Source: Nemertoderma westbladi (lineage: Eukaryota; Animalia; Xenacoelomorpha). Taken from it: DNA of 64,000 bases. The stretch covers positions 1 through 64,000 of the forward strand of contig JAUCBJ010005606.1 in NCBI GenBank assembly GCA_032718475.1, written 5' to 3'. Under the pieces are notes generated by a model. That model worked only from the letters and a program-made list of their open reading frames with translations. It searched no databases and was not told the origin of the DNA. The position numbers and the translations under genes are program-made. Of the stretch, positions 8,426-64,000 are shown one piece after another (position 1 is the stretch's first letter; every line of letters begins with the position of its first letter).

Positions 8426-11400
8426 ATGGTAAAATATACCTTCTTATATAGTATTCTAATGTGTTATTGGGTTTCTCTTCCTTATTGTTATAGTACTACG
8501 AATAATTTCAATGTAGTAAAATCAATAAACTCCAAAAACTTATCACATCTCACACCAGTCGACAAAACTAATTGTATTAATTGTAGTTGCCCCCCCTCAA
8601 TGGTAAATGACAAATGTATATTTAACTCCAAAGATATAAATGATGAAAAGGCTATTATTACATGCAAAACCAAAAACCAAGTCTCCAAATGTACCTACAA
8701 ATCTCAAAGTTTATCTCATATATACCACCCTCCTGATGAGACTGTGTATCTCATAAAAAAGGTTGACTACTGGAAGGATGAAATAGATCCAATGATAACA
8801 TGCACTCCAAGTAAGTCAAATGAACAATGTGAACCCCACAATATTAGGCTTGAAATTGAATATCCTGCTGAGGATGTCGAGATCTATGTTGGAGAAAATG
8901 ATTTACCACAAGATTTAAGAGTCAAGCCAGGAGTAGATGTTCAGTTGCGCTGTAGATACATTGATGGTCATCCTTCAACGAAATGCCACCAATGGTATAA
9001 AAATGAAGAAATAATAAAAGATGAAGATTCAAAGGAACTTAATTTTAAAAATATTTCAAAAAAAGATGCCGGGAATTATGAATGTGAGGCATTAACAACA
9101 TATTCGAATGGAGATACCGATTCTACAGAGTCAGAAATTGTTAAAATTATAGTTGAATATTGTGATAATATAATCTTAGACCTTGGGAAAACATCAGAAT
9201 CACCCAACTACTCAAATCTAACTACATATACCAATTATAATGTTACAATTATAGTTGGTGAGCTTGTCGAGTTTGAGTGGAAATATAATTCAACAACAGT
9301 GTCGACAGATATATATTTCTCATGGTCAGGGACAGGGACACCAGATATCCATCAGGATCACAAAATAAAATTCATTGCCAGCAAGGACTACAAGGGTAAT
9401 TTGTTAACAGTAGCTAAATGTCTGTTTCAGTGTGAAGGATGTCAGCAAGAGATAAATTACAGAGCTAACATAAGCATTGACGTCGTATATTGTATAGATG
9501 CAAAACTCATTATTACTTATAATGAGAATCCAGTCTCAATCCCAAATGATGGCAACGTAATTGTTATAAGAGATAGTGAGGTTGTGTTGCAACTGGTGGT
9601 TGATGCTAATATAGAACTTGTTTACAGCTGGAAGGGGCCTGGTATAATAATCTCAAATGTGTCTCAACAAGCTTTTATTGCAACAACCAATAGAAACGGC
9701 CAATTCAATGCCTCAATTTCATGTTTATATGACTCATATTTAAATTATACAAACGATTATTCTTTCAGTTTCAACTTGAAAATTGGAATTCCCCCTGAGC
9801 TAGACAATCCAGAACAAGTTGAGGAAGTTGATAAACATGAGAATGTTACAATGAAATGTGAAGCCTGGAGCAATCCGCCACCCAGAGGTGACTATGGAGT
9901 TGTAGAGTGGCGATTTCAAAATCCAAACAATGACCCAATTAAGCCAGACAACAAGACGAAATTTATCACCATACAGTCTGTAGATTTGCCAAATGATGGG
10001 CAATGGCATACTGAAACCTCATTAAAGATTGTGAATGCTGATGTACAAGCTGATGGAAAATATTATTGCGATTTTACTAATGGTGTTGGGGTAAAGGGAA
10101 GTGGTGTAGTCGTATTACTTATCAGAAGAGAACCAGAACTAATTGATGTGAAATCAATAGAAGTTGAATGGCTCAATGCAACACAAATGAAAATATCTTG
10201 GCAAGAAAGCGATAATGGTGGTTATACACAGTATTATCAGATTGAGTTATATGAATTTCCATTGAATCCTGTACTGAAAGAAGAACCAACTAATGAAACT
10301 TCCCAATATCTCATTCAAAAGTTAAACCTTAGTGAGGGCAATAGTGAATTTGTTCAAAGTGGCGTCAGTGGAAATTATGAATATCAGCTATTCTATCAAT
10401 CATGTAATAGGCTGGGGTGTACTGTTAAAGAACATGCATATATCAAATACAACTATACTCCCAATAAATCGTCACAAGGTCTAAGTGAAGGTACGAAAAT
10501 TACCATTGCTGTTGTTATATCTGTAACAATTATTATTAGTATAGCAATTGCTGTGTACTATATGATATTTCGAATAACAAGAAAACCAACAAAGAGTGAA
10601 GAACCTCCTGTAAACCCTTCACAAGGTAAAACCGTAAATGATGTTTATAGTGATTACATAGAATATGGATCAGCAAATTATTCAAATAATAGGAAATCTC
10701 TAACTGAATACAAACCTAAAACAAACCGTGAATCATTACGCTCAAAAGACTCCACAAAAGAAGCCGCAGATATATATGCAGAATATGCAGTGTCTGGTGG
10801 TTCAATGGAGGAAGTTAAGAAAGAGCTGAAAAGTGCAAAAAACGATTTAGTTCTTAAAAATACAAATAATGCTCCACGTGTATCGAATGTTCCTCCAAGA
10901 AATGTTACCTTTGGTGTTAAGGACCATTCACGCTTCTCCACTGCAGTCCCAGATGCTCATGACAACCAAGTCACAGTAGATAATGAAGACTATGTGGAAC
11001 TTGGGAGTGAAACCTACTACACTACAGACACTATTAATGTGACTAAACCAATGGAACAACCAACACCAACAACACAAACAACAAAACCGAAGGGTTACTT
11101 GAAGAGGTTACGGGCACTAGCTAAGAGTTTCTCCAAGAATGCTATTAATTCACCCAAGAATGATAACCCAGTTGACCATGAATACTTTGTCTATGATTGT
11201 CAACACAAAATCAATTCCCAAGGGAGGAAAGGAACATCTATGACTACTGATAATCCTGCATTTTTACCAGATCCCGAAGATAACTCAAACTCACTAAACT
11301 ATATTCCAACAACCTCAGGTGAACGATTGAATACCAATAGATGGAGTTCAAATACAACAGACAATGACCAGGAACCTGCAGAATATTTTGTAATTAAACG

Positions 11401-11869
11401 AGAAAATTCGGTAGAATGTCTGGAAGTTGAATATGGAACTTCAACGTCTTTCCCAAATTCTAATATAAAACAGATGCAGAGTTTTAAAGGCACAATCGGA
11501 AATGTGATGCCTAAATCTAATTTAAGGAATGTCAAAGAAATTCAATCAAAAGATGCCGGCTATGTAGACCACGAGGCTAATTCTGGAATATATTCTTCAG
11601 TTATAAAACAAGTAAAAAAAGAACATGATACACCAATTAATATTCCTGGAGTTGTTAGATCAGAAGATGTAGATAAATACCACCAAAATGATGATGATAC
11701 TGCAGTATATACAACCGTTGTAAAACCGCTAGGGAAAACAGAAGATAAACCAAAAAATATTCCTGGTCTTATAGTTCAACCAAATGAAGAGCTTGATGGA
11801 TCTGATACAGAAAAACCGGATATTCCAGAATATAGTCCGGCACTTTTTAACATTCTTTTAACATTCTAA
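8426..11869 (+). CDS. Intronless IgSF type I transmembrane receptor, paralogue A (signal peptide, ~5 Ig-like domains, FN3, TM, Tyr-rich tail; Sidestep/nephrin-like architecture)
   Basis: 1147-aa ORF with a hydrophobic N-terminus. Ig motifs VQLRC...WYKN...DAGNYEC and VTMKCEAWSNPPP...EW...DGKYYCDFTNGVG; FN3 motif ISWQESDNGGYTQYYQIELY; TM ITIAVVISVTIIISIAIAVYYMIF (nt 10499-10570) followed by RITRK; ~430-aa tail with many Tyr motifs. Confidence 0.88.
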   Translation: MVKYTFLYSILMCYWVSLPYCYSTTNNFNVVKSINSKNLSHLTPVDKTNCINCSCPPSMVNDKCIFNSKDINDEKAIITCKTKNQVSKCTYKSQSLSHIYHPPDETVYLIKKVDYWKDEIDPMITCTPSKSNEQCEPHNIRLEIEYPAEDVEIYVGENDLPQDLRVKPGVDVQLRCRYIDGHPSTKCHQWYKNEEIIKDEDSKELNFKNISKKDAGNYECEALTTYSNGDTDSTESEIVKIIVEYCDNIILDLGKTSESPNYSNLTTYTNYNVTIIVGELVEFEWKYNSTTVSTDIYFSWSGTGTPDIHQDHKIKFIASKDYKGNLLTVAKCLFQCEGCQQEINYRANISIDVVYCIDAKLIITYNENPVSIPNDGNVIVIRDSEVVLQLVVDANIELVYSWKGPGIIISNVSQQAFIATTNRNGQFNASISCLYDSYLNYTNDYSFSFNLKIGIPPELDNPEQVEEVDKHENVTMKCEAWSNPPPRGDYGVVEWRFQNPNNDPIKPDNKTKFITIQSVDLPNDGQWHTETSLKIVNADVQADGKYYCDFTNGVGVKGSGVVVLLIRREPELIDVKSIEVEWLNATQMKISWQESDNGGYTQYYQIELYEFPLNPVLKEEPTNETSQYLIQKLNLSEGNSEFVQSGVSGNYEYQLFYQSCNRLGCTVKEHAYIKYNYTPNKSSQGLSEGTKITIAVVISVTIIISIAIAVYYMIFRITRKPTKSEEPPVNPSQGKTVNDVYSDYIEYGSANYSNNRKSLTEYKPKTNRESLRSKDSTKEAADIYAEYAVSGGSMEEVKKELKSAKNDLVLKNTNNAPRVSNVPPRNVTFGVKDHSRFSTAVPDAHDNQVTVDNEDYVELGSETYYTTDTINVTKPMEQPTPTTQTTKPKGYLKRLRALAKSFSKNAINSPKNDNPVDHEYFVYDCQHKINSQGRKGTSMTTDNPAFLPDPEDNSNSLNYIPTTSGERLNTNRWSSNTTDNDQEPAEYFVIKRENSVECLEVEYGTSTSFPNSNIKQMQSFKGTIGNVMPKSNLRNVKEIQSKDAGYVDHEANSGIYSSVIKQVKKEHDTPINIPGVVRSEDVDKYHQNDDDTAVYTTVVKPLGKTEDKPKNIPGLIVQPNEELDGSDTEKPDIPEYSPALFNILLTF

Positions 11870-12061
11870 CAACTTTCTATAGCTGCTACCCGAGAGTAGT
11901 AGGGGTGGGTGCTACTCCTATCCCAAGATTTGCTCCCAATTATTTAACTGGTACACATTTTATCAACCCCAGTGGATGAAAGGCTGAGTGGACCCTGGCG
12001 AGGCTGAACCTACAACCAATAGATTGCAGGCCCGGTGCTCAGCCAACTGAGCTACCCCGCC
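11855..12061 (-). mobile_element. tRNA-derived SINE with Meta-domain-like core
   Basis: Minus strand begins ggcggggtagctcagttggctgagc (A box) ... ggttcagcc (B-box-like), then gtccactcagcctttcatccactggggttgataaaatgtgtacca, resembling the MetaSINE/Sauria-SINE conserved core; short agaatgtta tail repeats. Confidence 0.65.
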
Positions 12062-13681
12062 TTATAACTATAATTCTACTGCATAATTTAAACAATTACA
12101 TTTTCAGCTTTTTTTTTCTGGAAAACAAAATAATTATAGGATTAGTAGATATTGCCCGAAAAAGTAGCCACCACTTTAATAAAAGTTAAACTTTCAAAAG
12201 TGAATTCTTGTTTTTAAAGTAGTCACAATATTATAAAGAATATATTATATCTATAAAGAAAATTTCAGTTTTGAAAGTAGACTATAGTAATAAATTCTAC
12301 ATCTTTGCAATCCCAACCTAAAGGTGCATCATGGCACTTCGGCACTATAACATTTTGGCTATATTGGTGTTGACATCCCGGTAGTGACGGCCATGAGAGT
12401 AAATTGGTGGAAATCGATACAGAATCGTATTATACTTTTGATATTTTGTATTAACCCTTAGTAGCATGGGCTTTATAAAATAAAGGGAAACTGAAATTTC
12501 TCAAAAATTTTATTCTGTAGAAAACAATTTCGCCATAAACTTTGCAAACAATTTCGATCACCACTATATTTTTTTCAACTTCATTTATGCTACTAAATGT
12601 TCCACATGAAATAATAAAAATTATGACACGTAAAAATGAACACATGTGTTTCCATATACATCTTGTATTCCATGAGTGAGTATACCATATATATATTATA
12701 AATTTTTGTTGCAACCAATAATAAATTATATATATATACCTATATGTAGATCACATTGCATAATGCAGAATATGAAAAAGTGAAACATAAAATCGTTTTA
12801 AGTTGAACGAAAAGAAAGTTCTATATTAATTTTAATCCAATTTTAATTAATATTTATAATAACATGTAAGATATTTATTATACTATTTTTTGCTGTCATC
12901 ATCATTCATTATTCTGATATAAAATTTGTAATTTTCTACCATAATTGGCAGTGTGTAATTTTACTGAAAATAATGTTATCTTATTGTTTCTCAGTAACAT
13001 AATGTGCGAAATAAAGTAAAATAATGTGTATGTAAAATGTATATTTTGTGAAATATAGGAAAGAATCATCGTTTTACTTCGTATCATCAATTACTTTCTC
13101 GAGATTATCCGAATCTTCTAGGCCCGTTTCCTTTAAGAGACGTATCAAAAAATTCTTAGGCAGTCAACCAAGCAAATGGCAAGGACATCAAATCACAAGA
13201 TTGTGCACACTGGCTGGTAATTACGGCGGAACCATGCTATCTATTCTCAAACGGTCATCCCTTATGATTCAGAAATATAGAAAAAATTTTTCGTTTTTTT
13301 ATATAACCTACACATCCAACCATTATTGGTCTGTTTAAACATTTATGATTCTTTCAGAATAATGTTTATTATTATTAATGTTTATCAAAATACAATGTTT
13401 ATCACTTATTTTCAAATATTCATGTTACTTGTGATAGAATATTGTAATTACTTTTATGTATCATTAATATTATTTAACATATTAGATTATTTACTGCATA
13501 AACTTAGTAAAGAAATATTTTAAACCAAGATCAATTGTTTTCAATAGACTCAGAAAAAACAAAAAATAGCACATTATTTCACACCAATCCTAAAAGTATA
13601 ATTTGATGAGAGATTGTTAGTGAGTGACGCAATTTACACATCAATGGGTCATAATGGAAATAAAAGATATGAAATAAAGCC

Positions 13682-13960
13682 TACTACTACTACTACTAGG
13701 TCGAGCGACCTCGGACAGTGGAAATGAGATTCATCCAGGCTTCCCAATTCTCTATAGTAGTCACAATTTCGTTTCTCTCAAATCCAGTATCCCTTTCTAG
13801 TTGGTCTATAGATATTTCATAGCCGGTCGTCCACAACTACGCTTCCCATATGTTGGTTGCCAGAAAAGTAGATCTGGTATGACCTCGTCTTTACTTCGCC
13901 AGCAGTGCCCACTGAATCGTAATCTGCGTTCGCTGAGGGTGGTTGATACAGATGGTATTG
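13682..13960 (-). mobile_element. Short 3' fragment of the same RTE family as 158-2340
   Basis: Close match to 158-432, including the (TAG)n tail and ggtcgagcg...gacagtggaaatgagat. Confidence 0.85.
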
Positions 13961-14026
13961 TAACTACTAGCACTACAATGCATTGGGGTTGCTTTACCGG
14001 TTAATCGACAAAATTGGGCCGCCACA

Positions 14027-16572: not shown

Positions 16573-16767
16573 AATGGCTTTCAAGAAATTAATGAAATTA
16601 AATGATTAAGTATAAATTTAATGTCATTCGCTTTTTATAATGTAAATGCACATAAATAGGGACCGATAAACCCTAGACTGGTTTATGGAATTAATATTCT
16701 TAATTATTTATCTACTAGTTGCATCAGAGCTCAGCCCTAATTCTAAAATCAAAAATAAAGCAGTAAT

Positions 16768-23538: not shown

Positions 23539-26500
23539 ATGTATACCTGCATATATATCATTGCCATTTATTACTTAGTTTTGCTTCCCGAGAGTTACAG
23601 TTATTTCACTGTGAATAATTTCAATATATTAGGTACAACAAACTCCAAAAATATATCATACCCTAATCCAGTTGATAAATCAGTATGTTTTCAATGCAGC
23701 TGTTCCTCTTTGACGGGGACAACATGCAAATTAAAATCCGAAGACATAAATTCTGGAAGGGCTTTTGTCACCTGCAAAAATCCATATTCTGGCCTTTCCA
23801 AATGGTCATATAAGGGTCAGTCTTTAACTCCTATAACGTTTGTCCAACCTGATACAACGCATTTCTTTATTAATAATGTTAACTACTGGAAGGATGAGAT
23901 TGCCCCGACCCTAGAGTGTAGTGGAAATGGCTTTGCTAATAGTTGTTTGTTCAAATGTTCCATTGATCTTCAAATTCAATATCCAGCTGAACGGGTCGAG
24001 ATTTATTATGGGATCTTACCTTTAAATGATTTAAGGGTCAAAGAAGGAGACGATGTTGATTTGCGTTGTGAGTATAAAGATGGTAATCCTCCAACCCAAT
24101 ACCATAAATGGTATAAAGATGAAGAAATGATAGAACATAAAGATTCGAAGTTCCTTAATTTGAAAAAAATATCAAAGCATGAGGCAGGGCAGTATAAATG
24201 TGAAGCCTTAACGAGATATTGGGATGGAGTGATTGAATCTACATCTTCAAAACTTGGTAAAATTACAGTTGAATATTGTGACAACATGATCTTGCACCTT
24301 GGGATGACTTGGGAATCACCACAACCAAACCAAATTTTAAATTACGATGTCACAATTATTGTTAATGAAATGGTCAAATTTGAGTGGAAATTTGATTCAA
24401 CAACAAACATGTACTTTTTATGGACACAGGGTACCAGTATACAAGAGACTGGTAGCGGAATAAAGTTCATTGCAAGGAAAGACAGTCAAGGGAGTTTGTT
24501 AGCTGAAGCTGTATGTAGCTTTCAGTGCCAAACATGTGAAGTGGTGAGATACAAAGCAAACATAACAATTGACGTTGTATATTGTATAGATGCAAAACTC
24601 ATTATTACTTATAATGGGATTCCAGCCTCAACCCTAAATGATGGCAATGTTCTTGTTATAAGAGATAGTGAGGTTGTGTTGCAAATGGAAGTTGATGCTA
24701 ATATTGAACTTTTTTACAGCTGGAAGGGGCCTGGTATAATAAACTCAAATATACCTCAACAAGTTTTTATTGCAACAACCAATAGTAACGGCCAATTCAA
24801 TGCCTCTGTGTCATGTTTATATGACAAATCTTTAGAATATGCAAAAGATTACTCTTTCAATTTCAACTTGACAATTGGAATTCCTCCTGAGCTAGACAAT
24901 CCAGAACAAGTTGAGGAAGTTGATAAACATGAAAATGTTACAATGAAATGTGAAGCCTGGAGCAATCCGCCACCAAGAGGTGACTATGGAGTTGTAGAGT
25001 GGCGATTTCAAAATCCAAACAATGACCCAATTAGGCCAGACAACAAGACGAAATTGATCACCATAGATTCTAAAGATTTGACAAATAATGGAAAAATTAT
25101 AAAATGGTATACTATAACATCGTTAACTATTGTGAACGCTGTGGTACAAAATGGCGGAGAATATTATTGCGATTTTATTAATGGTGTTGGGGTAAAGGGA
25201 AGTGGTGTAATTGAATTGATCATCAGAAGAGAACCGGAAAGAATTGATGTGAAATCAATAGAAGTTGAATGGCTCAATGCAACACAAATGAAAATATCTT
25301 GGCAAGAAAGCGATAATGGTGGTTATACACAGTATTATCAGATTGAGTTATATGAATTTCCATTGAATCCTATACTGAAAGAAGAACCAACTAATGAAAC
25401 ATCTCTAAATCTCTTACAAAAGTTAAACCTTAGTGAGGGCAATAGTGAATTTGTTCAAAGTGGCGTCAGTGAAAATTATGAATATCAGCTATACTATCAA
25501 TCATGTAATAGGCTGGGGTGCACTGTCAAAGAACATGAATATATCAAATATAACTATACCTCTACCAAATTAACCGAATCAACACAAGGTCTCAGTGAAA
25601 GAACAACAATTACCATTGCTGTTGTTATATCTGTAACAATTATTATTAGCATAGCAATTGCTTTATACTATATTATATTTCGAATAACAAGAAAACCAAA
25701 GAAGTGTGAAGAACCTCTTGTAAATACTTCACAAGGAAAAACAGAAAATGATGTTTGCATTGAATATATAGAATATGGATCAGCCAATTATGCAAATAAT
25801 AGGAAATCTCTAACTGAATACAAAACTAAAACAAACCGGGAATCATTACGCTCAAATGACTCAACAAAAGATGCCGCAGATATATATGCAGAATATGCGG
25901 TGTCTGGTAGTTCAATGGAGGAACTTAAGAAAGAGCTGAAAAGTGCAAAAAACGATTTAGTTCTTAAAAATACAAAGAATGATCAATGTGTATCGAATGT
26001 TCCTCCAAGAAATGTTACCTTTGGTGTTAAGGACCATTCACGCTTCTCCACTGCAGTCCCAGATGCTCATGACAACCAAGTCACAGTAGATAATGACGAC
26101 TATGTGGAACTTGGGAGTGAAACCTACTACACTACAGACACTATTAATGTGACTAAACCAACTGAACAACCAACACCAACAACACAAACAACAAAACAGA
26201 AGGGTTACTTGAAGAGGTTACGGGCACTAGCTAAGAGTTTCTCCAAGAATGCTATTAATTCACCCAAGAATGATAACCCAGTTGACCATGAATACTTTGT
26301 CTATGATTGTCAACACAAAATCAATTCCCAAGGGAGGAAAGGGACATCTATGACTACTGATAATCCTGCATTTTTACCAGATCCCGAAGATAACTCACTC
26401 AGCTATATTCCAACAACCTCAAGTGAACGATTGAATACCAATAGATGGAGTTCAAATACAACAGACAATGACCAGGAACCTGCAGAATATTTTGTAATTG

Positions 26501-26979
26501 AACGACACAACTCCATGGAATGTCTGGAAGTTGAATATGGAAGTTCAACGTCTTTCCCAAATACTAAAATAAAACAAATGCAGAGTTTTAAAGGCACAAT
26601 CGGAAATGTGATGCCTAAATCTAATTTAAGGAATGTCAAAGAAATTAAATCAAAAGATGCCGGCTATGTAGACCAAGAGGCTAATTCTGGAATATATTCT
26701 TCAGTTATAAAACAAGTAAAAAAAGAAAATGATAAACCAATTCATATTCCTGGAGTTGTTAGATCAGAAGATGTAGATAAATACCACCAAAATGATGATG
26801 ATACTGCAGTATATACAACCGTTGTAAAACCGCTAGGGAAAACAGAAGATAAACCAAAAAATATTCCTGGTCTTATAGTTCAACCAAATGAAGAGCTTGA
26901 TGGATCTGATACAGAAAAACCGGATATTCCAGAATATAGTCCGGCACTTTTTAACATTGTTGATTATAAAGAGTGGTAG
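23539..26979 (+). CDS. Intronless IgSF type I transmembrane receptor, paralogue B
   Basis: 1146-aa ORF with the same architecture as A. High identity to A from DVVYCIDAK onward, strongly divergent N-terminal third; ends IVDYKEW. Confidence 0.88.
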   Translation: MYTCIYIIAIYYLVLLPESYSYFTVNNFNILGTTNSKNISYPNPVDKSVCFQCSCSSLTGTTCKLKSEDINSGRAFVTCKNPYSGLSKWSYKGQSLTPITFVQPDTTHFFINNVNYWKDEIAPTLECSGNGFANSCLFKCSIDLQIQYPAERVEIYYGILPLNDLRVKEGDDVDLRCEYKDGNPPTQYHKWYKDEEMIEHKDSKFLNLKKISKHEAGQYKCEALTRYWDGVIESTSSKLGKITVEYCDNMILHLGMTWESPQPNQILNYDVTIIVNEMVKFEWKFDSTTNMYFLWTQGTSIQETGSGIKFIARKDSQGSLLAEAVCSFQCQTCEVVRYKANITIDVVYCIDAKLIITYNGIPASTLNDGNVLVIRDSEVVLQMEVDANIELFYSWKGPGIINSNIPQQVFIATTNSNGQFNASVSCLYDKSLEYAKDYSFNFNLTIGIPPELDNPEQVEEVDKHENVTMKCEAWSNPPPRGDYGVVEWRFQNPNNDPIRPDNKTKLITIDSKDLTNNGKIIKWYTITSLTIVNAVVQNGGEYYCDFINGVGVKGSGVIELIIRREPERIDVKSIEVEWLNATQMKISWQESDNGGYTQYYQIELYEFPLNPILKEEPTNETSLNLLQKLNLSEGNSEFVQSGVSENYEYQLYYQSCNRLGCTVKEHEYIKYNYTSTKLTESTQGLSERTTITIAVVISVTIIISIAIALYYIIFRITRKPKKCEEPLVNTSQGKTENDVCIEYIEYGSANYANNRKSLTEYKTKTNRESLRSNDSTKDAADIYAEYAVSGSSMEELKKELKSAKNDLVLKNTKNDQCVSNVPPRNVTFGVKDHSRFSTAVPDAHDNQVTVDNDDYVELGSETYYTTDTINVTKPTEQPTPTTQTTKQKGYLKRLRALAKSFSKNAINSPKNDNPVDHEYFVYDCQHKINSQGRKGTSMTTDNPAFLPDPEDNSLSYIPTTSSERLNTNRWSSNTTDNDQEPAEYFVIERHNSMECLEVEYGSSTSFPNTKIKQMQSFKGTIGNVMPKSNLRNVKEIKSKDAGYVDQEANSGIYSSVIKQVKKENDKPIHIPGVVRSEDVDKYHQNDDDTAVYTTVVKPLGKTEDKPKNIPGLIVQPNEELDGSDTEKPDIPEYSPALFNIVDYKEW

Positions 26980-35936: not shown

Positions 35937-37473
<1,537 letters not shown>

Positions 37474-37475
<2 letters not shown>

Positions 37476-41572: not shown

Positions 41573-41962
41573 CTACAAGGAGATGTACATGTTTGCATAA
41601 TCACTTCAGTGGGCCGACATTCCGGCCATCTCATTAAAAATTATCATTTTAGCCTTATATATCGTTATCCAATGAATGAAGTTTTTATAAAATTATCCAT
41701 AATAAAATTCGAATTTATTTTTCGAATAAGCTCTTGATTTAGATTTGTATAGAACATATTCCTAGTTCCTACCTCATTACAACAGATACCAGTACTCTAA
41801 TTTACAACTGTTGAATGAAATGTAGTCAGTTATTACTATTTTATTTCTGAGGTTCAGATTTCCTGTACATTCTGTCGATTTGTGTTCTATTAAAAAAAAT
41901 ATTATTCTGTATATTTTACAATAATGGTTCAAATAATGCAATCTTGATTGTTATATGATATA

Positions 41963-51759: not shown

Positions 51760-54700
51760 ATGGTGGGGCCGCCGGTACGACGCCGAACCAGGAGAGGAGG
51801 AGGAGATGTCGGCGAAGAGGACGTTGGGACCAGCGATCGGCTACGACGGTCCTACAACGCCACGAAGAAACTATTACAGGAGGCCAGAGAGGGAGGAAAG
51901 GTAAACCAGGGAAAGTTAAACCAACGGCTAGGTGAGTCGAATAAACACTTTCGGTATCTAGTTCGTTTTGGGCAGGGAGAACTGGTGAGTGAGAGAGCGA
52001 GGGGGGTCGCCACCGAACTATTCGAACTGTGGCAATCCGGGGTTATGGAGCCTGAAGTAGTGTACGTAGGGCCATATTTAGTGGATGCCAGGGGAATTAA
52101 GTTAGTGGGTTGGGTGGATCCGCATGAGGGCGAACCTGAGGTTAACCCCGAGGATTTGGTCTCGTCGGTTAGCGAGAACCCCAGAAAGCAGGGGAAAGTT
52201 AGTAGGACAGAGAGGCGACGGGAGTCTGTTGCGACCGATAAGTCCGCTACATCCTCCGCGAAAGCAAGAAGGGTGTTAGAGATAGATCTGGCGTGTCAAC
52301 TAGACATGGTGGCGCTAGACCAGAAATAATTAGAGAGGCAGTTGGATGAGGGAACTGCTTTGTTAGAGAAAGAGAGAGAGTTGGCGAGGGAATGTAGAGA
52401 GAGGGCCGAAAGGGTGGCGAAGAACTGTAGAGAGCAAGAAGAGAGAGAGACAGAGGAACGTAAAGAGCGAGAGGCGAGAGTAGAGAACGAGCGTAAAGAG
52501 CGGGAGACGAGAGTAGAGAACGAGCGTAAAGAGCGAGAGATGAGAGTAGAGAACGAGCGTAAAGAGCGAGAAGTGAGAGAGGCAGCGAGGGTGGAGAGAG
52601 AAACGAATGAACATAAAGAGCGGGAGGCGAGAGTGGAGAGCGAGCGTAGAGAGCGGGAGGCGAGAGTAGAGAGCGAGCGTAGAGAGCGGGTGGCGAGAGA
52701 AACAGAGTTAGCGAACCAGAGTTTACGAGAGGATAGAGAGAGAGAGAGAGAGCGGGAAAGCGCATGCGGGATGATATGCATGCCCAGTTGAGGGGGCTTA
52801 TGCAATATCAGGCCAAGCAGAAGCGCCGACTAGACCTGGTGCAACTAGGATTATCTGAGAGTGAGGCTGGCTCGGGCAGTATTTACGAGGAGCCAGAAGT
52901 GATGGAAACGTTTGTTAATACCCCACTTGCAGGGACCGGACGACAGACCCAAGACTGGTGTAACCGTATGGGCGGGGGGGGGGGGGGGGGGTAATAATAA
53001 TACGTTAGAAGGCATTAATATTAATAGTACCGTAGTAGACAACCCTAATCAAACTTTCATTGCAGGAAATAATATTTTGCCCAGTAATAATAACTTAAAT
53101 CCAAATAATTCTAACATAAATATACAAAATAATAACCCTAATATAAATATAGAAAATAATTCAAATAATAATTTAAATTCAAATATACAAAATAATCCGA
53201 TTCCAATTTAAATATACAAAATAATAATTCTAACATAAATACACAAAATAATTTAAATAACAACCCAAATTCCGAACAGAATAATTTAAATAATTTAGGT
53301 AATAATGTTGTTGATAATGGTGCTATTAATATGAACGCGGGAGACATAGGTGGTCCGACCAGCGAGAGCCTGCAAGGCCACGTAGTTAGTATGCAGGGAG
53401 TAGCGGGGGTGAGTCAACCTGACGGGAGCCTGCAAGGCCACGCAGTAGTAGAGGGAGAGGCGGGGGTGAATAGACCCAGCCGCAGTAGAGATAGTGCGTC
53501 GAATAGAGAGGGGCGTAGAAGCGAAGTAGAAGATAGTGAAGCAATAGGTGGCGAGTGGGGGGGGGGGGGGGGTACAGGCGTCCCACCACGGGAGATTAGT
53601 GGTGCGAGGGGGGGCAGACAATGTCCCACGGGCGTCGGCGGATCATGCGAGGGGCAAGTTAGGTGAACCGCAGCACCCGGCGATGGAGAATAGTAGGGGG
53701 ATTACGAATATCCCCAGCAGCATCCAACCAGCTAGAGAGAGAGATGTTGGCGTTGTGAGCAGGCGAGCGAAAAGACGCCGAGCCCAGTCAGAAGACGGAA
53801 GAAGAACAGTGGAGTTTAACCGGGAGGTCAACGAGAGATCTCATGAGCGGGAACGCTACACTGAAGAGAGAAGAAGAGAAGAGAATTGGAGAAGCGTTGC
53901 TACGAGCGACTGGAGAGCGAGGATGGATAGCGAGCCGTCGGTAGTAGAGATGGAGTTGGAGAGTCAGTGGGGTCGAACTCCGGGAGATTGCCGTCGCCCC
54001 GGAGAGACGCAGCCTGGCGAAATATATCATACGCCAGGAGAGGGGTACAGAATGTACTGGTACGAGGACGAGAACAGGAGAGGGGATCGAAGAGAAACTT
54101 CCCAACGGGATATAGCTGCCGATCGAGGGTACGGTAGTCGCAGGGAGGACTTCTTGGATTATTCGAGAAGGTTAAACTTCGGTCCGGAAGGACACATACA
54201 GACTGCAGGACATACTGTAGGCCTTACTGCACATACTATAGGCCATGCTGGGAGAGATAGTGTAGGCGATAGGGTAGCGCGAACAACGGGATTAGATCCG
54301 GAAGTCGCGGCATATATACCGGTAGGTAGGCAAGAAGTGGATAGGCCTATACCGGTACCAGCACAGCAGTATGACTATAATATGCAGGGACATAACATAT
54401 ATCCAGGGGAGGGGAGAGTTATTGCAGATAGGTGTATGGGCCCCAATATATTAACATCAACCCCAGTACCAAACATACCACCGGTGGGGGGGGGGGGGGG
54501 ACAGGGTGACATTCCCCCATTACAATATCAACAATACACTCAACCGGGAATAAGAACATCGAACCCCCTGGACGAGAACAGATCTTGCGACACGGAGATA
54601 TGGAGGGGGCCGTTACCCCCAATGGTATATCCGACGCAAAGAAAGTCAACAGGCCCGACGGGCGGACCGCACCCAACGGGAGAATCTGTACAGCATCCCT

Positions 54701-55790
54701 CGAACCCATTGGAAGCACAGGCAATGGGAATGGCAACACTTATCGATGCGCTCAAGACCAGGATCGAGCTACCACCAGTAGAGCCATTTAAATTCGACGG
54801 AAGCAGACCGGAAGAATACCTGCAATTCCGACGCATGTACAGCAACGAGATATTAACTAAGAACCTGACGCAGGCGGAGTGCCTAAAATATCTACAGGTA
54901 TACACAGGAGGCCCAGCGTACGACATCGTGAGGCAGTATCAGGGCATCGAGGGTGGCTTCACGACTGCATGGCGGGCCCTAGACAGGGAATACGGACACC
55001 CTGCCAAGATCATCCGGCAGACCCTGAGGGGAATAACATCGGGTGGCCTACAGGATAACCCTGTTAGCATAAAGACCTTCGCGAACAAGGTCGAGAAGGC
55101 GTTAATCGTGCTGAAAACGCTAGACGCGCCATACGAACTCAACGCATCTAATAATATCACCACGATAGCGCAGGCACTGCCGATCTGGCTGCGCAATAAA
55201 TGGAGAAAGATCGCCTTCTCCACCCGGGAGAAGAAAGGTGCGGAACCGGGCCTAGAGGAAATGTCGAACTTCCTCAACTACGAAGCAGAGTTAATCACGG
55301 ACCCAGTCTACAGCGAGGATAGTCTGGGGAAGGCGCCGAGGGCCGAATACAACAGGCCGAAACCAGAGCACAATGCGGCAAATGCGTTGCCAAAATTAAG
55401 ACAATCCCTACCATACGCGGCGTCACAGGGGACTGCAAGTCCACAGATAGCTGGGAGTGGGGCCAGACTGTGGCACGAACAGGGACAAAATAACAACACA
55501 AACAAATATAATCCCAACACACCCAGTAGGCCAAACCCAAATAACCAAAACACTAAACCGGTAGACGTGAACCTACGCGCAATACGTATAGGGCTATATA
55601 GGGAATGTTACAACCCAGAATAGAAATGTCAATTGCATAAAGACAGAACCCATAAGACCATGGACTGTAAGCATTGGCTGGCATTACCCGAACAAGATCG
55701 GAAAGCCTATGCGGATAAGAATGGAATTTGTCACCGATGTGTGGTAGGAGGACACAAGGTTGAAGAGTGTAAGGAGACACCAGTAAGATT
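51760..55790 (+). pseudogene. BEL/Pao gag region (coiled-coil E/R repeats, Asn-rich tract, DUF1759-like capsid, Zn knuckles), broken by stops and frameshifts
   Basis: IELPPVEPFKFDGSRPEEYLQF, LKYLQVYTGGPA, ALDREYG, LPIWLRNKW; CHRCVVGGHKVEEC knuckle; frame changes at poly-G runs. Confidence 0.8.
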
Positions 55791-58332
55791 CGGTCAAGGC
55801 AAAGGTCAAACAATGGCGACAAGCACCATAGGGGCGAAGAAAAGGGGAACGGTGCTACTGGGGGTGGTACCGGTGAGGGTAATAGGAGAGGGCGGTCGAT
55901 CAGTTACTACCTTGATGCTGGTTGACAGTGGAGCAGCCTTCACATTGGTGGAGAATTGGGTGGCTGAAGAGATAGGGTTACAGACGAGGCCAAGCAGAAT
56001 GGCGGTAACTACCATCTCCAGCAAAGATGAGGTCCTGGAGATGAGGACGGGAAGGTGCGAGATATCAGCGATAGCACCGGGATGTGACTATGGGGCGACC
56101 ATCGACCCCATCTAGGTAATAGAATCAATCAACATAAACACCAGCCGACCAACTAACATCGAGGTCGACCAGTATAGATTCCTGGACAACATCGATTTCT
56201 CGATACCAGAGGTGGACGTCAGGAAGGTATCCATCATAGTGGGAATGGACTGCCCGACGGCTCACGAAAGAGTACAGACGATCTTCGGGGAAGACAGACA
56301 GCGCGATCCGATGGCAATTCTCACACCATTCGGATGGACGCTGAGCGGCCCAATCAAAACCAAAATTCCATTTAGGATGTCGGAGACATCGGGGTGCATG
56401 TTCGCGGGGACTATGAGGGAGATGGAAGATGAAGGAGCGGAGGAACAGCTGAAGAGACTGTTGAGGCAGGCTTTTGAAGGACTGAAGGAGACCGGGGTCG
56501 GAACCTCGGTAGAGGATAAACAGGCAGTTGCAGAGTGTGAAGGAGTCGATGAGATGCGACGAGGGACGGTACACCATAGGCATGGTGTGGAAACAGCCGA
56601 AGTTGCCGTTGCCTGACAACAAGAGGATGGTACTCACGAGGCTTCGCATACTGAAGCAAACGCTTAAACGGAGCCCCGAGAAGGATGAGTACATCCATAG
56701 GACGATAAAGAAGTACGCCGAGAAAGGATGGGCCGTGGAGTTGCCGGTTGACGAACCAATCACGGACAGGACCTACTACCTGCCACTTCATGTGGCTTTA
56801 GACCCAAAGAAGGGTAACTGCGGATGGTGGTTGACGCATCGGCTAAAACCAATGGCAAGAGCCTGAACGACTATCTGCTCAAGGGCCCCAATATCTACAA
56901 CTCGGGGATAGAGGTCTTGTTGAGATTTAGGAATGGGAGGCACACCTTCACGTGCGACATCGAAGGCATGTTCAACCAGGTCCGTATGACGGAGGAGGAC
57001 AGCGACAGCCAGCGCTTCCTATGGTACAACGGCGACGAGGAATCATCGACAATACCGATGTACAAGATGGTGGTGCAGAACATGGGGGCCAAGTCGTCCT
57101 CATTCACGACGACTGTGGCTGTAAGAGATACGGTAGAGGGGAAAGAGGGGAAGTATAGCGCCAAAGCGATCGATATGATTCGACACAGCTTCTATGTAGA
57201 CGACGGGATGGAGTCTGGAAACACGGTTAAAGAATTACTGGACACAGGGCGCGAGGTTCGCGACATCCTGAAAGGATCCGGATTTAACCTGACCAAGTTT
57301 CAGTCCAGCTCAGAGGAGTTTATGAAAGCCATAGAGGACAGGCGGCCAGAGTCGACCATGGACAACCCCACAACAGCCAAGGGACAGGACATGGCGGACA
57401 AGAGAGTAGAGTCTCAGCAGAAGGCGCTGGGGATCGTGTGGAACCGGGAGACGGACGAGTTCAAGTACCAACAGAGCCAGGAGGGCGCGGAGATCCACAC
57501 AAAGAGGGGCTATGTATCGTACATAGCAAGGATATACGATCCCTTAGGCCTGGCATCCCCATTGTTAGTCACGGGGAAGCAGATACTTAAGAAAGTATAT
57601 AAGTTAAAGGACGAGTGGGATACGGAGGTCCCGGAAGAGATATGCAAGCAATGGAGCAAGTGGACAGGGAGTCAAGAACAGATGGGGACGTACAGCATGC
57701 CACGCGTGTATTTCCCGAACGGGGACATGACGGATCTGGACCTACACATGTTCTCCGATGCATCATTGGAAGCATACGGAGCGGCACTCTACCTAGTACA
57801 GCGAAAGGGGGCTCATAAGCCCAGACTTGCATTCAGTAAAGCAAAGTCGATGCCGCCAGATTCAGCATCAGTCCCAAAATTCGAGTTGACAGCTGCAAGA
57901 TTAGGAGTAAGGGCCACAGCCTACTTGATGGACACTATTCCCAACATAGTGGAAACACACTACTGGATGGACTCCATGGTAGTGCTCGGGTGGCTGCACA
58001 ACGAGAAGACGAGATACCCTATATTCGTCGTGAATAGGGTGGACGAAATATGGGCGACGACAGACTTGGAAAGGTGGCACTACTGCCCAACGGACGAGAA
58101 CCCAGCAGACTTGTTATCGAGGGGTGTGGCACGCCACACTTTCTCAAAGAAGGAAGTGCTATGGCAGCATGGGCCACACTTCCTGAATGATAGATCGGCC
58201 TGGCCACCAATGAAGAAGGTGGACCCGGGCTCAGAGGAAGTAGCACCAGGGGAAGAGGGAGAAGATTCAGAAGGAGAAGAGATATATAGTCAGATGGTGA
58301 GGGAAGTCAGGGAGGTACAACCGAAATTATAA
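55791..58332 (+). pseudogene. BEL/Pao protease, reverse transcriptase and RNase H
   Basis: LVDSGAAFT (aspartic protease), LTPFGWTLSGP, YYLPLH, VVDASAKTNGKSLNDYLLKGPN, CDIEGMFNQV, SFYVDDG, IYDPLGLASP, MFSDASLEAYGA, WMDSMVVLGW, ENPADLLSRG. Confidence 0.9.
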
Positions 58333-58398
58333 GAGCCATGTGACAACCCGACGGATAGGATACTCAGCTACAGCTCCAGTTGGTACAAGACCAAGAAG

Positions 58399-59694
58399 TT
58401 GGTAGCGTACTGGAGGGCCTACGGGGATTTCCTCAAGGGAGTTGGCAAGGACGCCAAGAGGAAACCAAATATCTATCGAGTTAGCAAACAACAACATCTT
58501 CGTCGGGACAGCGAGCTCATCACGCTGTCACCACAACTCAACGATGACGGGATTCTAGTGATGAATTCCAGAGTGCTGAATAACAACAGCCTTATCATTC
58601 CACCAAAACCCATTATCATCCCCAACAGATCGCTGATAGTCCACCAGATCAATTGGGACTCCCACAAGTCGATAGGCACCAACCAGACCCTCACAGAGAT
58701 ACGGAGGACCTTCTGGATCGCGCAGCTAAGAAAGAAGGTGAAGGCGGTAGTGGGGCAGTGCCAGACCTGCCGACGGACAAGGAAGGAGAGGGCCGTACAG
58801 GAGATGGCGCCATTACCGGCCAGTAGAGTGAGACAGCACGACCCGCCATTCACGCACTGCGGCGTAGACATGTACGGGCTGATTAAGATCAAGGTGATGC
58901 GACACACGGAGAAACGATACGGCATCATCTTCGTATGTAACAACACGAGGGCGGTAGGAATAGAACTCGCCCAAGACGCCACGGCATCGGCATTCATCAA
59001 TGCCTTAGAGAGATTTAGAGACCGCAAAGGTGGAACGATCGCAGTGATCTATTCCGACAATGGAACCAACTATGTGGGAGCGGAGAACGAGTTGGCGGAG
59101 GCCTTGGACATCCTAGAAGGAGAAGAGGTCAGGGCAGCCATGAGGATACAACAGGTGAAGTGGGAAAGGAGGACGCCGTATGCGCCACATACGTTAGGAT
59201 GCGTCGAGAGGCTTGTGGGTAGTTCCAAGCATCTGATGACGAAGTTGATGAACACCCACATGGTGACAGAGGACATTCTAAGAACGGTGCTAGCTAAGTG
59301 TGAGGGAATCATTAATAGCAGACCGCTATACCCGGAGAATGACGACCCGGAATCACTAGACGTGCTAACACCGAGCCAATTTCTGATGGAAAGGCCAGCG
59401 ACCATCGACATGCGGGGTGTAGACCCAGATGACATACACTCCCGACAGAGTTGGAAAGTCGCCAAGGCGATAAGCGCCGAGTATTGGAGGAGGTGGGTCG
59501 AGGAATACCTACCCACATTACACAGGAGGAGCAAGTGGAGAAACACCACTCGAGAGTTAAAGAAAGGTGACTTAGTGATCGTCACTGACGACACAATCAT
59601 CAACAATCAGTGGAGGCTAGCGAGAGTAGTAGACACTTACCCTGACGAGGACGGAAGAGTCCGATCGGTGGAAGTGCGGATAGGGGTAAGATAG
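58399..59694 (+). CDS. BEL/Pao integrase (HHCC remnant, DDE core, DUF5641-like C-terminus)
   Basis: CQTCRR, MAPLPASRV, PFTHCGVDMYG, IYSDNGTNYVGA, ERLVG, INSRPL, LTPSQFL, YWRRWVEEYLPTL, DGRVRSVEV. Confidence 0.88.
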   Translation: MVAYWRAYGDFLKGVGKDAKRKPNIYRVSKQQHLRRDSELITLSPQLNDDGILVMNSRVLNNNSLIIPPKPIIIPNRSLIVHQINWDSHKSIGTNQTLTEIRRTFWIAQLRKKVKAVVGQCQTCRRTRKERAVQEMAPLPASRVRQHDPPFTHCGVDMYGLIKIKVMRHTEKRYGIIFVCNNTRAVGIELAQDATASAFINALERFRDRKGGTIAVIYSDNGTNYVGAENELAEALDILEGEEVRAAMRIQQVKWERRTPYAPHTLGCVERLVGSSKHLMTKLMNTHMVTEDILRTVLAKCEGIINSRPLYPENDDPESLDVLTPSQFLMERPATIDMRGVDPDDIHSRQSWKVAKAISAEYWRRWVEEYLPTLHRRSKWRNTTRELKKGDLVIVTDDTIINNQWRLARVVDTYPDEDGRVRSVEVRIGVR

Positions 59695-61647: not shown

Positions 61648-64000
61648 ATGCTGCGATACTCCATAAATACTGTTTTCCTATATATTTTAATTTTAATTAC
61701 TCATACCAGTTATTGTTTAGCAGCTGAAACTATTGCTCAGATAAGTGATGAAAGTGAACTCGTAGAAGAATACAAGGGGCCAAAGGAGTCTGTTGACTGC
61801 AGTTGTTCATCTAATCAGGATCCATGTCATCTAAGATCCCGAGATATACTTAAAGGGGAAGAATATGTGAGCTGCACAAATTCAAATGGAGAACGTAATG
61901 AATGGTACTACAGAGATCAAAGGTTAACACCTGATGAATTTATCCAACCGGACGAGACACGATATCATATAACAAGTGTTGATTATTGGAAATATAACAC
62001 ATCGCCATTAGAGTGCAAAACAAAGAAGAAAAAACACGATGACAGATGCGAAATAACTCTCATTATAGAATATCCTGCAGAAAAGGTTCAAGTATATCAT
62101 GGTATATTGCCGTTGACTGATTTAAGAGTTAAGGCCGGTGATGATGTTGTGTTACGATGCAAATATACAGATGGTTATCCTAAGACACAAACCCATCTAT
62201 GGTATAAAGATGATGCTATTTTACCAGGTGATTTCTCCAATACGCTTTCCATTACAGATATATTGAAAACAGATGCTGGACGATACAAATGTGCTGCTAA
62301 AACAACATATAGCTTTGGGTCTGATTACGAGATAATTCAGTCAAACAGTGGAAAAATTACAGTTGAATATTGTGATAATGTAATACTATATTTTAGTTAT
62401 AAATGGTACGAACCACAAGCTGATAGCCTCTCGAAATACAAAGTAACAATTGTAGTTGGGGAATTTGCAAAGTTTATGTGGAGATTCAAGTCATCAACTA
62501 ATATGTTTTTCGTATGGAACGGAAAAGCAACACAAGAGTTCGGACAATCACTTGAATTTACAGCTACAAAGGAGAGTAAAGGGATTGTAAATACTGAGGC
62601 AGAATGCAGTTTCCAGTGTGAAGATTGCCGTTCTGTAAGTTACAGAGCACAAATAGATATTGATACAATATACTGCATCGATGCAAAGCTGCGAATTACC
62701 ACCAATGGGGAAGCACCCCTAAAGCTAAATGATGGAAGCTTCCTTGTTATGAAAGACAGTGACGTTGTGATGCAACTAGAGGTTGATGCTAATATAGACC
62801 ACCAATTTGCCTGGAATGGACCTGGAATTCGTTCATTGGTTGAATCCTTTAATAAATCCAAACAACATTTTCAAGCAACACCAAATAGAAATGGCAAATT
62901 CGGTGCAACAGTTTCTTGTTTTTACAATTTAGAATTCGAATATGAAAACCACCATAATTTTGATTTTAACTTAACAGTTGGAGTGTCTCCAGATTTGGAA
63001 ATAGAAAAACAAGACATGTATGTTGATAAATCAGGTAATGTAACCATGATGTGTAAAGCCGTAAGCAATCCACCACCTACAGGAGTTTACGGGGCTGTGC
63101 ACTGGCGATATAATGATCCAAATAGTTATCCAATTCAAGCAGATAACCAAAAGACATTCCTTTCAATAGACTCGGAGGATATATCAAGTAATGGCATTAT
63201 TACACATTGGAATACTGAAACATTTTTAAAAATAACAAATATTGAAGTAAAAGATGCTGGAATATATTATTGTGATTTCATTAATGGCGTTGGAATACTT
63301 GGAAGTGGTGTAATTTCCCTTCATGTCAGATCTGAACCAGAAAGTATTGATGTAAGTTCATTGGAAGTCAAGTATATCGATGCATCAACCATGGAAATAA
63401 CATGGAATGAAAGCTTTAATGGTGGGTATGCACAGTATTATCTGATAGAGTTATATAGTCTACAACAAGATATAACTAACGATACATCTCCAAATTTAAT
63501 ACAGTCGTTAAATCTAACAAACAGAAGATTTGTTCAAGGAGGTATTAGTGATCAGCATTCCTATGAAATAATTTGTCAATCATGCAACCAACTAGGTTGC
63601 AGTAGAAAGAACAATGCCTTTATTCAGTACGATTATAATGCAGAGAAATTAACTGGTGGTTCATCAGCTGGAACGACAATTGTCATTGCAGTCGTGGTGT
63701 CAGTAACTATAATTGTAATCATGGTTATTGCTTTGTATTATTTTGTAGTTCGAGTAACAGCAAGACGATCTGATAAATTTAAATCATTTGAAAATCCCCC
63801 AAAGCAAGGTAACTCACAGGCGGTTGTGGGTGATGATGATTATATGGTGTATGATGTAAACAAAAGAGCAAGCAACAGGAAATCTCTCACTGAGTATGCT
63901 CTCAGAAAAAAACATAATCGTGAATCTTCACATCCAAAAGAGATAGACATGAACAAAGATGCGGCTGATTTGTATGCAGAGTATGCAGTTTCTGGAGGAT
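61648..64000 (+). CDS. Intronless IgSF type I transmembrane receptor, paralogue D (runs off the window; not in the ORF track)
   Basis: ATG at 61648 (MLRYSINTVFLYILILITHTSYCLAA...), colinear and highly similar to C through the Ig domains, FN3, TM and into the tail (NRKSLTEYAL, DAADLYAEYAVSGG); no stop before the window end. Confidence 0.88.
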   Translation, partial: MLRYSINTVFLYILILITHTSYCLAAETIAQISDESELVEEYKGPKESVDCSCSSNQDPCHLRSRDILKGEEYVSCTNSNGERNEWYYRDQRLTPDEFIQPDETRYHITSVDYWKYNTSPLECKTKKKKHDDRCEITLIIEYPAEKVQVYHGILPLTDLRVKAGDDVVLRCKYTDGYPKTQTHLWYKDDAILPGDFSNTLSITDILKTDAGRYKCAAKTTYSFGSDYEIIQSNSGKITVEYCDNVILYFSYKWYEPQADSLSKYKVTIVVGEFAKFMWRFKSSTNMFFVWNGKATQEFGQSLEFTATKESKGIVNTEAECSFQCEDCRSVSYRAQIDIDTIYCIDAKLRITTNGEAPLKLNDGSFLVMKDSDVVMQLEVDANIDHQFAWNGPGIRSLVESFNKSKQHFQATPNRNGKFGATVSCFYNLEFEYENHHNFDFNLTVGVSPDLEIEKQDMYVDKSGNVTMMCKAVSNPPPTGVYGAVHWRYNDPNSYPIQADNQKTFLSIDSEDISSNGIITHWNTETFLKITNIEVKDAGIYYCDFINGVGILGSGVISLHVRSEPESIDVSSLEVKYIDASTMEITWNESFNGGYAQYYLIELYSLQQDITNDTSPNLIQSLNLTNRRFVQGGISDQHSYEIICQSCNQLGCSRKNNAFIQYDYNAEKLTGGSSAGTTIVIAVVVSVTIIVIMVIALYYFVVRVTARRSDKFKSFENPPKQGNSQAVVGDDDYMVYDVNKRASNRKSLTEYALRKKHNRESSHPKEIDMNKDAADLYAEYAVSGG

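Follow-up and report, generated by a model that had tools for sequence, protein, structure and literature searches.

The described systems closest to the locus studied here are receptors of the immunoglobulin superfamily (IgSF), together with some that resemble it in gene form. The locus is a 64,000-nt stretch (the window) of Nemertoderma westbladi contig JAUCBJ010005606.1 with four genes, labeled g1 to g4 in window order, that encode immunoglobulin (Ig)-like and fibronectin type III (FN3) domains. In Hydractinia, Alr proteins have one to three Ig-like domains, an FN3-like spacer, and a transmembrane (TM) segment, with one exon per domain; their first domain is a V-set without the B- and F-strand pin cysteines, and immunoreceptor tyrosine-based activation or inhibitory motifs (ITAMs, ITIMs) occur in many of the tails, although not in all (PMC9546547). 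Exchange between Alr2 and its pseudogenes has been reported (PMC8282982), and 35 Alr2 alleles were found in 18 colonies (PMC3342096). Botryllus FcoR receptors, of 520-610 aa, combine a V-Ig domain, sushi, and two C2 domains with ITIM/hemITAM motifs, acid-flanked Y-x-x-I/L/V core motifs, and variation in gene content (PMC12065747). Drosophila Sidestep proteins (Sides) have five Ig domains, FN3, TM, and an unstructured tail of 200-400 residues; binding is through IG1, the C-terminal end is a PDZ peptide, and Side is multi-exon (PMC12258940). A review table lists Sides only for flies, and the same source gives invariant architectures of nine Ig plus FN3 for nephrin and five Ig without FN3 for Kirrel (PMC10084454). 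As to gene form, fugu protocadherins have a single-exon ectodomain plus TM, regional 3' gene conversion, divergent EC1-EC3, and raised third-position GC (GC3) (PMC1852091), and sea urchin Toll-like receptors (TLRs) are intronless tandem immune receptors of an invertebrate (PMC3367398). Octopus protocadherins, first considered as another intronless case, were dropped from the comparison, the cited passage calling them multi-exonic (PMC6339937).

Against this background, we think it somewhat more probable than not that g1-g4 encode single-pass Ig/FN3 recognition receptors, with tips specific to each paralog, a base homogenized by gene conversion, and a shared phosphotyrosine output. That they form a lineage-specific, fast-evolving IgSF/FN3 receptor family without a named ortholog is supported. 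What is unusual is the combination of a missing V domain, degenerate third and fourth domains (D3 and D4), intronless form, and a conversion boundary at a domain junction; intronless tandem immune receptors (sea urchin TLRs) and regional 3' conversion (protocadherins) already have precedents. In two IgSF recognition families cited above, Alr and FcoR, the first domain is of V type, and exons of one domain each are shuffled in Alr; a V-less, intronless family with its exchange boundary at a domain junction would be a further way to place variable tips on an unchanging signaling base. Cloning, allele typing, and assays are easy with single-ORF genes, which makes it directly testable whether tips that resist conversion are marks of specificity. 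If the tips are redundant, the locus is an ordinary lineage-specific IgSF expansion.

Four single-ORF receptor genes

All four genes lie on the forward strand, each as one open reading frame (ORF): g1 at 8426..11869 (1147 aa), g2 at 23539..26979 (1146 aa), g3 at 41963..44839 (958 aa), and g4 at 61648..64000 (at least 784 aa, its tail cut by the window end). They are real single-ORF receptor genes amid transposon debris, and stand where the first-pass annotation had placed four same-strand paralogs; the length of ~1000-1150 aa it gave for complete copies holds for g1 and g2, whereas g3 is shorter. The g1 protein has a signal peptide, a cysteine stub, five Ig-like domains (D1-D5), FN3, TM, and a 431-aa tail, and that of g3, of a second subfamily, has a shorter tail of 258 aa. 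In end-to-end alignment, protein identity to g1 is 77% for g2, 44% for g3, and 45% for g4; g4 is 91% identical to g3. Stops make up 6.05% of intergenic triplets, which by arithmetic estimate puts the chance of a 784-codon open frame at ~1e-21, and an in-frame stop lies 2-8 codons 5' of each ATG. A hydrophobic N terminus and a TM segment are present in 4/4, as the predicted signal peptide and membrane anchor had implied. Contigs of sequencing runs X1-X3 cover all 30 bins of g2.

These also seem to be the only host genes in the 64 kb, as first proposed. Outside g1-g4 there are 131 stop-free frames of at least 75 aa; Pfam was run on 73 of them, frames within tandem repeats and those that overlap a transposon frame or lie antisense to one being set aside. 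No other host gene was found, and the frames scanned gave transposon domains and one sub-threshold match inside a repeat. Short exons of a multi-exon gene could still be present in the window. All four copies are intact; an ectodomain profile search found no fifth copy or pseudogene fragment in the window, where Rfam gave no matches and no downstream kinase or phosphatase exon was found.

A concern raised along with the first-pass annotation was that the copies might be uncollapsed haplotypes of fewer genes, in this case two. The 94% DNA identity of g3 and g4, and the 93% of g1 and g2 over their 3' two-thirds, would fit such an assembly artifact. However, kilobases of flank are unalignable apart from dispersed repeats, and silent divergence (dS) between g1 and g2 is near 1 in D1 and D3. 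The promoter-proximal 5' flank of g3 (41705..41962, + strand) is only weakly alignable with that of g4, at 68% identity over 238 nt (controls 43-48%) versus 94% in the ORFs. Since the flanks do not align and identity drops in this way, g1-g4 are paralogs and not haplotigs; the artifact is already largely refuted and seems to us very improbable. We infer a single intron-free founder gene, either a retrocopy or the product of an intron-poor genome, and an old tandem duplication that gave the cluster. The idea of an intron-poor Xenoturbella was set aside, since a GC content of 43% and a median exon number of 4 are given for it (PMC11521371).

Domain architecture and relatives

The layout of about five Ig domains plus FN3 proposed earlier is borne out, by evidence of unequal kinds. 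In 4/4 proteins, D2 and D5 match a Pfam Ig domain; D1, D3, and D4 are called Ig-like from profile, fold, and language-model evidence only. The FN3 domain falls below the curated Pfam cut-off, with a weak match when excised (E 0.007-0.009, 2/2 tested), and bears a GG-x-x-Q motif in 4/4. On the forward strand of g2, the signal peptide and a short cysteine stub (CxC), standing where relatives have a V-set, occupy 23539..23721 (boundaries approximate). They are followed by D1, a C2-type Ig-like domain (23722..23982) that is the most divergent domain in 6/6 pairs (27-83% identity); D2, a canonical Ig domain (23983..24276) whose long FG loop occurs also in hemichordate and oyster nephrin-like proteins; D3 and D4, a tandem duplicate of degenerate Ig-like domains with no B-strand cysteine (24277..24879); D5 (Ig) and the FN3 with its GG-x-x-Q (24880..25557); and the TM helix (25609..25683). 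The same module is seen in D3 and in D4: its tryptophan, glycine, N-terminal cysteine, and F-strand cysteine are invariant, and the two domains are evidently a degenerate internal duplicate. Their profile aligned weakly over the Ig domain of sodium-channel beta-1 (E 0.16), and their Atlas neighbors are mostly Ig-family clusters (0.90-0.93).

D1 has both pin cysteines in 4/4. D1-D2 aligns to domains 2-3 of a gar CD22-like protein (51 bits), in which domain 2 is a Pfam C2-set_2, and D1 shares an extra G-strand cysteine with this counterpart; with hhalign, D1-D2 reached 98.1% against fish CD22-like. On this alignment, the proteins would start at what is domain 2 (C2-type) in V-C2-Ig receptors; the V domain usually found at the N terminus would be missing, with a short cysteine stub in its place. 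No upstream V exon was found in the window, either with a V-domain profile or by a search for paralogous upstream DNA. Fold searches alone assign no Ig set to D1, the set coming from the sequence alignment. In the AlphaFold model of D1-D2 (pLDDT 45.6, ~55-70 in D1), D1 is a beta-sandwich at modest confidence; the full-length model was unusable (pLDDT 30.5). The top Foldseek rows are nearly all Ig folds, with template-modeling scores of only ~0.2. VIA-align gave a best Z of 7.2, inside background, and the D1 profile found nothing among PDB sequences.

No full-length homolog was present among 5726 candidates at E<=0.001. Searched with a profile, 1.84 billion proteins yielded 1242 matches; the best 150 listed are multi-Ig proteins, nearly all of them matched around D2, and the best ectodomain BLAST match among 164 stored proteins reached 63.5 bits at 25% identity; in metagenome contigs there were 358 pattern matches, none confirmed. 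The BLAST and profile check thus gave neither a full-length homolog nor a named ortholog, and the view that this is a lineage-specific IgSF/FN3 family that cannot be assigned to a named gene stands. Among 20 looked-up matches, whose names are automatic annotation, the named vertebrate proteins were CD22/sialoadhesin-like (fish, amphibian, lizard) and hemicentin-like, and the invertebrate ones were hemichordate or oyster nephrin-like, hemicentin-like, and kirrel-like. The D2 loop motif was seen in 10 looked-up matches (eight hemichordate, one oyster, one lizard); in the window, g1 and g2 have the strict FG-loop pattern (2/4), and g3 and g4 a one-residue variant. Against four nephrin-like or hemicentin-like proteins (three of them hemichordate), hhalign gave 97.9% over 482 columns, from D1 through TM, at 21% identity, and only with these invertebrate-type proteins did the alignment extend through FN3 and TM. 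In a quick tree of 71 of the 150 matches plus the four D1-D2 segments, D1-D2 fell with C2+I pairs (support 88) on a long branch, and no orthology of D1-D2 was resolved by this tree. We infer that g1-g4 are a derived branch of the V-C2-(Ig)n-FN3 nephrin-like/CD22-like class that lost the V domain, coding introns, and canonical motifs.

The hemichordate and bivalve receptors named nephrin-like, hemicentin-like, or CD22-like (XP_077986001.1 of Glandiceps, XP_002737065.3 of Saccoglossus) resemble g1-g4 in the colinear match from D1 to TM, in the long FG loop of D2, and in the membrane-proximal Ig with a GG..Q FN3. They differ in that the Glandiceps protein begins with a V-set and several relatives end in an ITIM plus an immunoreceptor tyrosine-based switch motif (ITSM), neither of which g1-g4 have; this is a reading of the matched proteins, not a published family definition. 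The degenerate D3/D4 pair has no match in these receptors (1% probability). Among the multi-Ig relatives, five stored proteins (P0057, P0098, P0107, P0143, P0164; three hemichordate by name) have the paired C-terminal ITIM and ITSM. In Ptychodera and in Glandiceps, several relatives come from sequence records that have the same length within a species, which is consistent with clustering. Hemichordates possibly have a cluster of inhibitory Ig receptors, of which our literature search found no paper. Nor did that search, judged by titles and the starts of abstracts and with most subscription literature outside it, find a paper on an intronless or ITIM-type invertebrate Ig/FN3 cluster of this family.

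Among named families, the ITIM in the tail is a feature of Siglec/CD22; the complete tails of g1-g3 lack it, and g1-g4 lack the N-terminal V-set (their D1-D2 profile aligning from domain 2 on) and have an FN3 domain, which the gar CD22-like protein does not. From nephrin and Kirrel they differ in having five Ig-like domains plus FN3; the YDxV tail motif of these families is found in none of the three complete tails. With Sidestep they share five Ig domains, FN3, TM, and a long unstructured tail, the Ig calls of D1, D3, and D4 being weak, but the PDZ end is absent from g2 and g3, the Side gene is multi-exon, and D1 of g1-g4 is C2-like. The resemblance to Sidestep and nephrin noted in the first-pass annotation therefore holds for architecture, and membership fails on V domain, Ig count, or PDZ end.

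The Side layout is also what recommends a code for cell identity or neural wiring, in which g1-g4 would be constitutive adhesion receptors with tips that engage in homophilic binding or recognize a family of partners, as Sidestep or clustered protocadherins do. As in fugu protocadherins, the ectodomain is a single exon, the genes stand in tandem, and regional conversion lies on the 3' side; Atlas neighbors include arthropod Ig clusters (at 0.90-0.91), contactins, and neuroglian (0.89-0.92 overall); and the CpG depletion described below fits constitutive expression. We nevertheless regard such a code as unlikely. Sides have a PDZ peptide at the C terminus and bind by way of IG1, whereas the ends of g2 and g3 fit no PDZ class and D1 corresponds to a C2 domain in second position; Side is not among the names of the 20 looked-up matches; there are no shared constant exons; and for conserved wiring genes, an ectodomain dN/dS of 0.3-0.6 is high.

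Divergent tips and a likely shared base

The comparison of g1 and g2 gives a mosaic. In the part of g2 homogenized with g1 (24567..26961, + strand), mismatch is 6.7%, versus 34.7% upstream; this part starts in D3, five codons ahead of the boundary with D4, and reaches almost to the stop. The best single breakpoint is at codon 343, the D3/D4 boundary being residue 348. The dS values are 1.03 in D1, 0.49 in D2, and 1.11 in D3, and 0.11 in D4, 0.18 in D5, 0.11 in FN3, and 0.06 in the tail; four-fold sites differ at 23/62 distally versus 24/277 proximally (p=1.5e-7). The longest identical tracts are 215 nt in g1/g2 and 221 nt in g3/g4 (run-length permutation p=0.0002 and 0.015). Similarity of g1 and g2 ends at the ORF ends, and its stopping at the stop codon fits conversion tracts rather than recent duplication. 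On this pattern, gene conversion likely keeps the base of g1 and g2 alike, and their tips stay different. Because silent sites step together with replacement sites, the gradient reflects conversion of the base and not measured positive selection. Between g3 and g4, identity is 83% in D1, 98% in D2, 87% in D3, and 84% in the tail fragment, with DNA differences of 10.3% in D1 and 7.6% in D3 versus 1-3% in D2, D4, D5, and FN3 (heterogeneity p=9e-11). An N-terminal concentration of divergence, as first described, is thus strong in g1/g2, whereas in g3/g4 D2 is nearly unchanged and the tail is as divergent as D1.

The tips of g1 and g2 have dN/dS of 0.33-0.61, with pN below pS in D1 (p=0.001) and D3 (p=2e-5); they are constrained and therefore functional. 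The suggested per-domain dN/dS check thus points to purifying selection on the tips, with silent divergence parallel, and the word "diversifying" used of the family finds no sign of positive selection behind it. These values also bear on the idea that tip divergence has no meaning for specificity, g1-g4 being redundant old duplicates of one adhesion gene, in which conversion is confined to regions that are still homologous and drift has carried D1-D3 past the divergence threshold. Ratios below 1 in D1-D3, silent and replacement divergence that move together, and ratios near 1 in the converted tract (1.05 in D4, the highest of any domain, and 0.73 in the tail), as for recent unselected differences, are all in keeping with it. 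We judge it improbable, since the breakpoint coincides with a domain boundary, the divergent ectodomain patches of g3/g4 are again D1 and D3, and all copies are intact with no pseudogene fragment in the window.

Clustered protocadherins work in a like manner without being homologous: they share the large ectodomain exon, tandem same-strand order, and regional 3' conversion (clear in g1/g2, patchy in g3/g4) with our genes, but have cadherin repeats, a Pfam match found in 0/4 window proteins, and in alpha and gamma clusters shared constant exons, whereas g1-g4 have their own tails and the converted part of g1/g2 has no GC3 rise. An independently evolved Ig barcode of this kind, an intronless array from a V-less retrocopy in which D1-D3 would be an identity cassette swapped at D3/D4 onto a homogenized base, strikes us as a long shot. 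If true, it would yield new self or cell identities without exon shuffling, with gene content varying between animals.

Allele data consist of contigs from runs X1-X4 compared with g2, which is partly present in 5/6 runs, none of the six being recorded as RNA; X1 and X2 are one sample, maybe the source of the window itself, so X1-X3 cover at most two samples. In each of X1-X3, a single contig spans the signal peptide, D1, and D2 and reaches the beginning of D3, with 0/802 (X1), 7/768 (X2), and 7/802 (X3) differences from g2, that is, at most 0.9%, where g1 would give 259. As evidence for low polymorphism of the g2 tip this is weak; run contigs drop variants and collapse near-identical copies, and alleles below 80% identity would be missed. 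X4 has no contig over the 5' half of g2 and is uninformative there. A 316-324 nt contig over D5-FN3 in X1, X2, and X3 has 47-48 differences from g2 and matches neither g1 (17 differences from g2) nor g3/g4 (~67% identity), and one loose contig end has no counterpart in the window. Both point to additional family members, or else to alleles that have diverged strongly, and more copies probably exist beyond the window. One X4 contig has g1-type letters at 24/25 listed coding sites (the best-supported listed rows only) and then runs into the 3' flank of g2, with 79 differences from g2 in all versus 82 between g1 and g2. It may be a converted or recombined haplotype, with collapse of near-identical copies, as seen in X1-X3, as a caveat.

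Such a haplotype would suit Alr-like allorecognition, in which highly polymorphic self markers bind homophilically, allele to allele. Alr genes resemble g1-g4 in clustered IgSF and FN3-like domains, tandem order, degenerate Ig domains, a most variable D1, and exchange between neighbors, as in Alr2. Against this, the g2 tip differences contrast with the 35 Alr2 alleles of 18 colonies; Alr has one to three Ig domains versus five, an exon per domain versus one ORF, a V-set D1 without pin cysteines versus a C2-like D1 with both, and ITAM/ITIM in many tails versus none of the complete tails of g1-g3. We give allorecognition a slim chance. The analogy to Alr and vertebrate SIRP, Siglec, and KIR loci is not supported as first drawn, there being no ITIM, ITAM, or ITSM in the complete tails, no V-set tip, and, in at most two samples, little variation in the g2 tip. 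FcoR proteins share with g1-g4 the Ig receptor form and acid-flanked tyrosine motifs, and differ in sushi, V-Ig, ITIM/hemITAM, and size; sea urchin TLRs are a precedent for the intronless tandem form and differ in leucine-rich repeats and TIR domains.

The tail of g2 (431 aa; 25684..26976, + strand) has 21 tyrosines, 10 of them directly after D or E, and counts per complete tail are 15-21. Tyrosine share is 4.9-5.8% in the three complete tails versus 5.2-6.0% in the ectodomains, so the "tyrosine-rich" of the first-pass annotation is no enrichment; what stands is that tail tyrosines are selectively conserved, 12/15 aligned ones being kept between g2 and g3 versus 87/222 other residues (p=0.002). 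D/E-Y pairs are enriched over shuffles in 3/3 complete tails (p 0.0002-0.016), and the long tails of g1 and g2 have two extra [IV]Y[ST]xV sites without a g3 counterpart. The C-terminal end of g1 might serve as a class II PDZ ligand, but derives from a local duplication. In the region 11846-12075, the C-terminal residues of g1 differ from those of g2 after this short duplication, and directly 3' lies an insert of ~190 nt that looks like a short interspersed nuclear element, with no second copy in the window; the insertion appears to have rewritten the g1 C terminus.

Acid-flanked tail tyrosine motifs are established sites of kinase phosphorylation and SH2 recruitment. In the recognition receptors we favor, D1-D3 of each would bind its own partner; selection would hold D1-D3 outside the conversion tracts, and conversion would keep the membrane-proximal domains and tails of g1 and g2 interchangeable. 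Receptor clustering would then lead to phosphorylation of the tail and recruitment of SH2 proteins. The most likely role of such a family is immune-type, a heterophilic surveillance of cell or microbial surfaces by analogy with multigene families of the CD22, SIRP, and CEACAM type, a guess that we offer tentatively and hold well short of probable. Non-neural recognition between host cells is a somewhat less likely alternative; neither "immune" nor "allorecognition" is an established label for the locus, the latter being the weaker of the two readings.

Several results weigh against recognition receptors of this kind. Strict ITIM, ITAM, and ITSM are found in 0/3 complete tails, with patterns equal to or wider than those of the Alr paper, which weakens an immune role. 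Over the Ig part, a vertebrate CD22-like control aligned as well (98.1%, 369 columns), so the hemichordate link is unspecific there. No domain has dN/dS clearly above 1, four sequences being too few to detect a handful of selected sites. The converted part of g1/g2 shows no GC3 rise, unlike fugu protocadherins, and the tips of g1 and g2 may simply be too diverged to convert. In g3/g4, four-fold sites show no distal versus proximal gradient (11/104 vs 13/164, p=0.51), and the contrast of D1+D3 with D2, D4, D5, and FN3 reaches p=0.059. Finally, CpG depletion hints at constitutive, not inducible, genes. Observed/expected CpG is 0.45-0.55 in the genes versus 0.72-0.91 in intergenic DNA and 0.86 in the BEL element described below, and codon-junction CpG is depleted in 4/4 genes (21-22 observed vs 33-48 expected under synonymous shuffling; 22 vs 47.5 in g1), whereas GpC is not. 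Depletion in genes next to near-normal intergenic DNA is the pattern of invertebrate gene-body methylation, and suggests such methylation in g1-g4. Gene-body methylation goes with constitutive rather than inducible genes (PMC10883760).

Transposons and repeats around the genes

The rest of the window is made up of a long interspersed nuclear element (LINE) frame, pieces of a BEL/Pao element, smaller transposon remnants, and tandem repeats. The types of transposon, like the Ig/FN3 domains, point to an animal. Not all of it is decayed, as had been thought: the LINE (169..2349, - strand) retains an open frame of 726 codons with an intact reverse transcriptase (RT) domain. Its closest database relatives are ~60% identical, and its 3' end recurs at 13685-13962 with 90% identity. 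The BEL/Pao long terminal repeat (LTR) retrotransposon lies between g3 and g4 (53548..59694, + strand), with gag-like DUF1759, protease, RT, Peptidase_A17, and integrase in separate frames; it has 50-52% GC versus a background of ~36%, and no LTR pair was found for it. An integrase-core fragment (Pfam rva_4, E 8e-7) is present between g1 and g2 (16013-16279, + strand).

Minisatellites occur at 29875-30672 (a 19-mer, 42 copies) and 37106-37398 (ACG, 98 copies). Two inverted 32-mer arrays lie at 48395-49759, and arrays of a 97-mer and a 68-mer at 40582-41572 end ~400 nt upstream of g3. A pair of 400-nt inverted repeats (37474-37874 and 38308-38691), 91.5% identical and ~430 nt apart, resembles a miniature inverted-repeat or foldback element.

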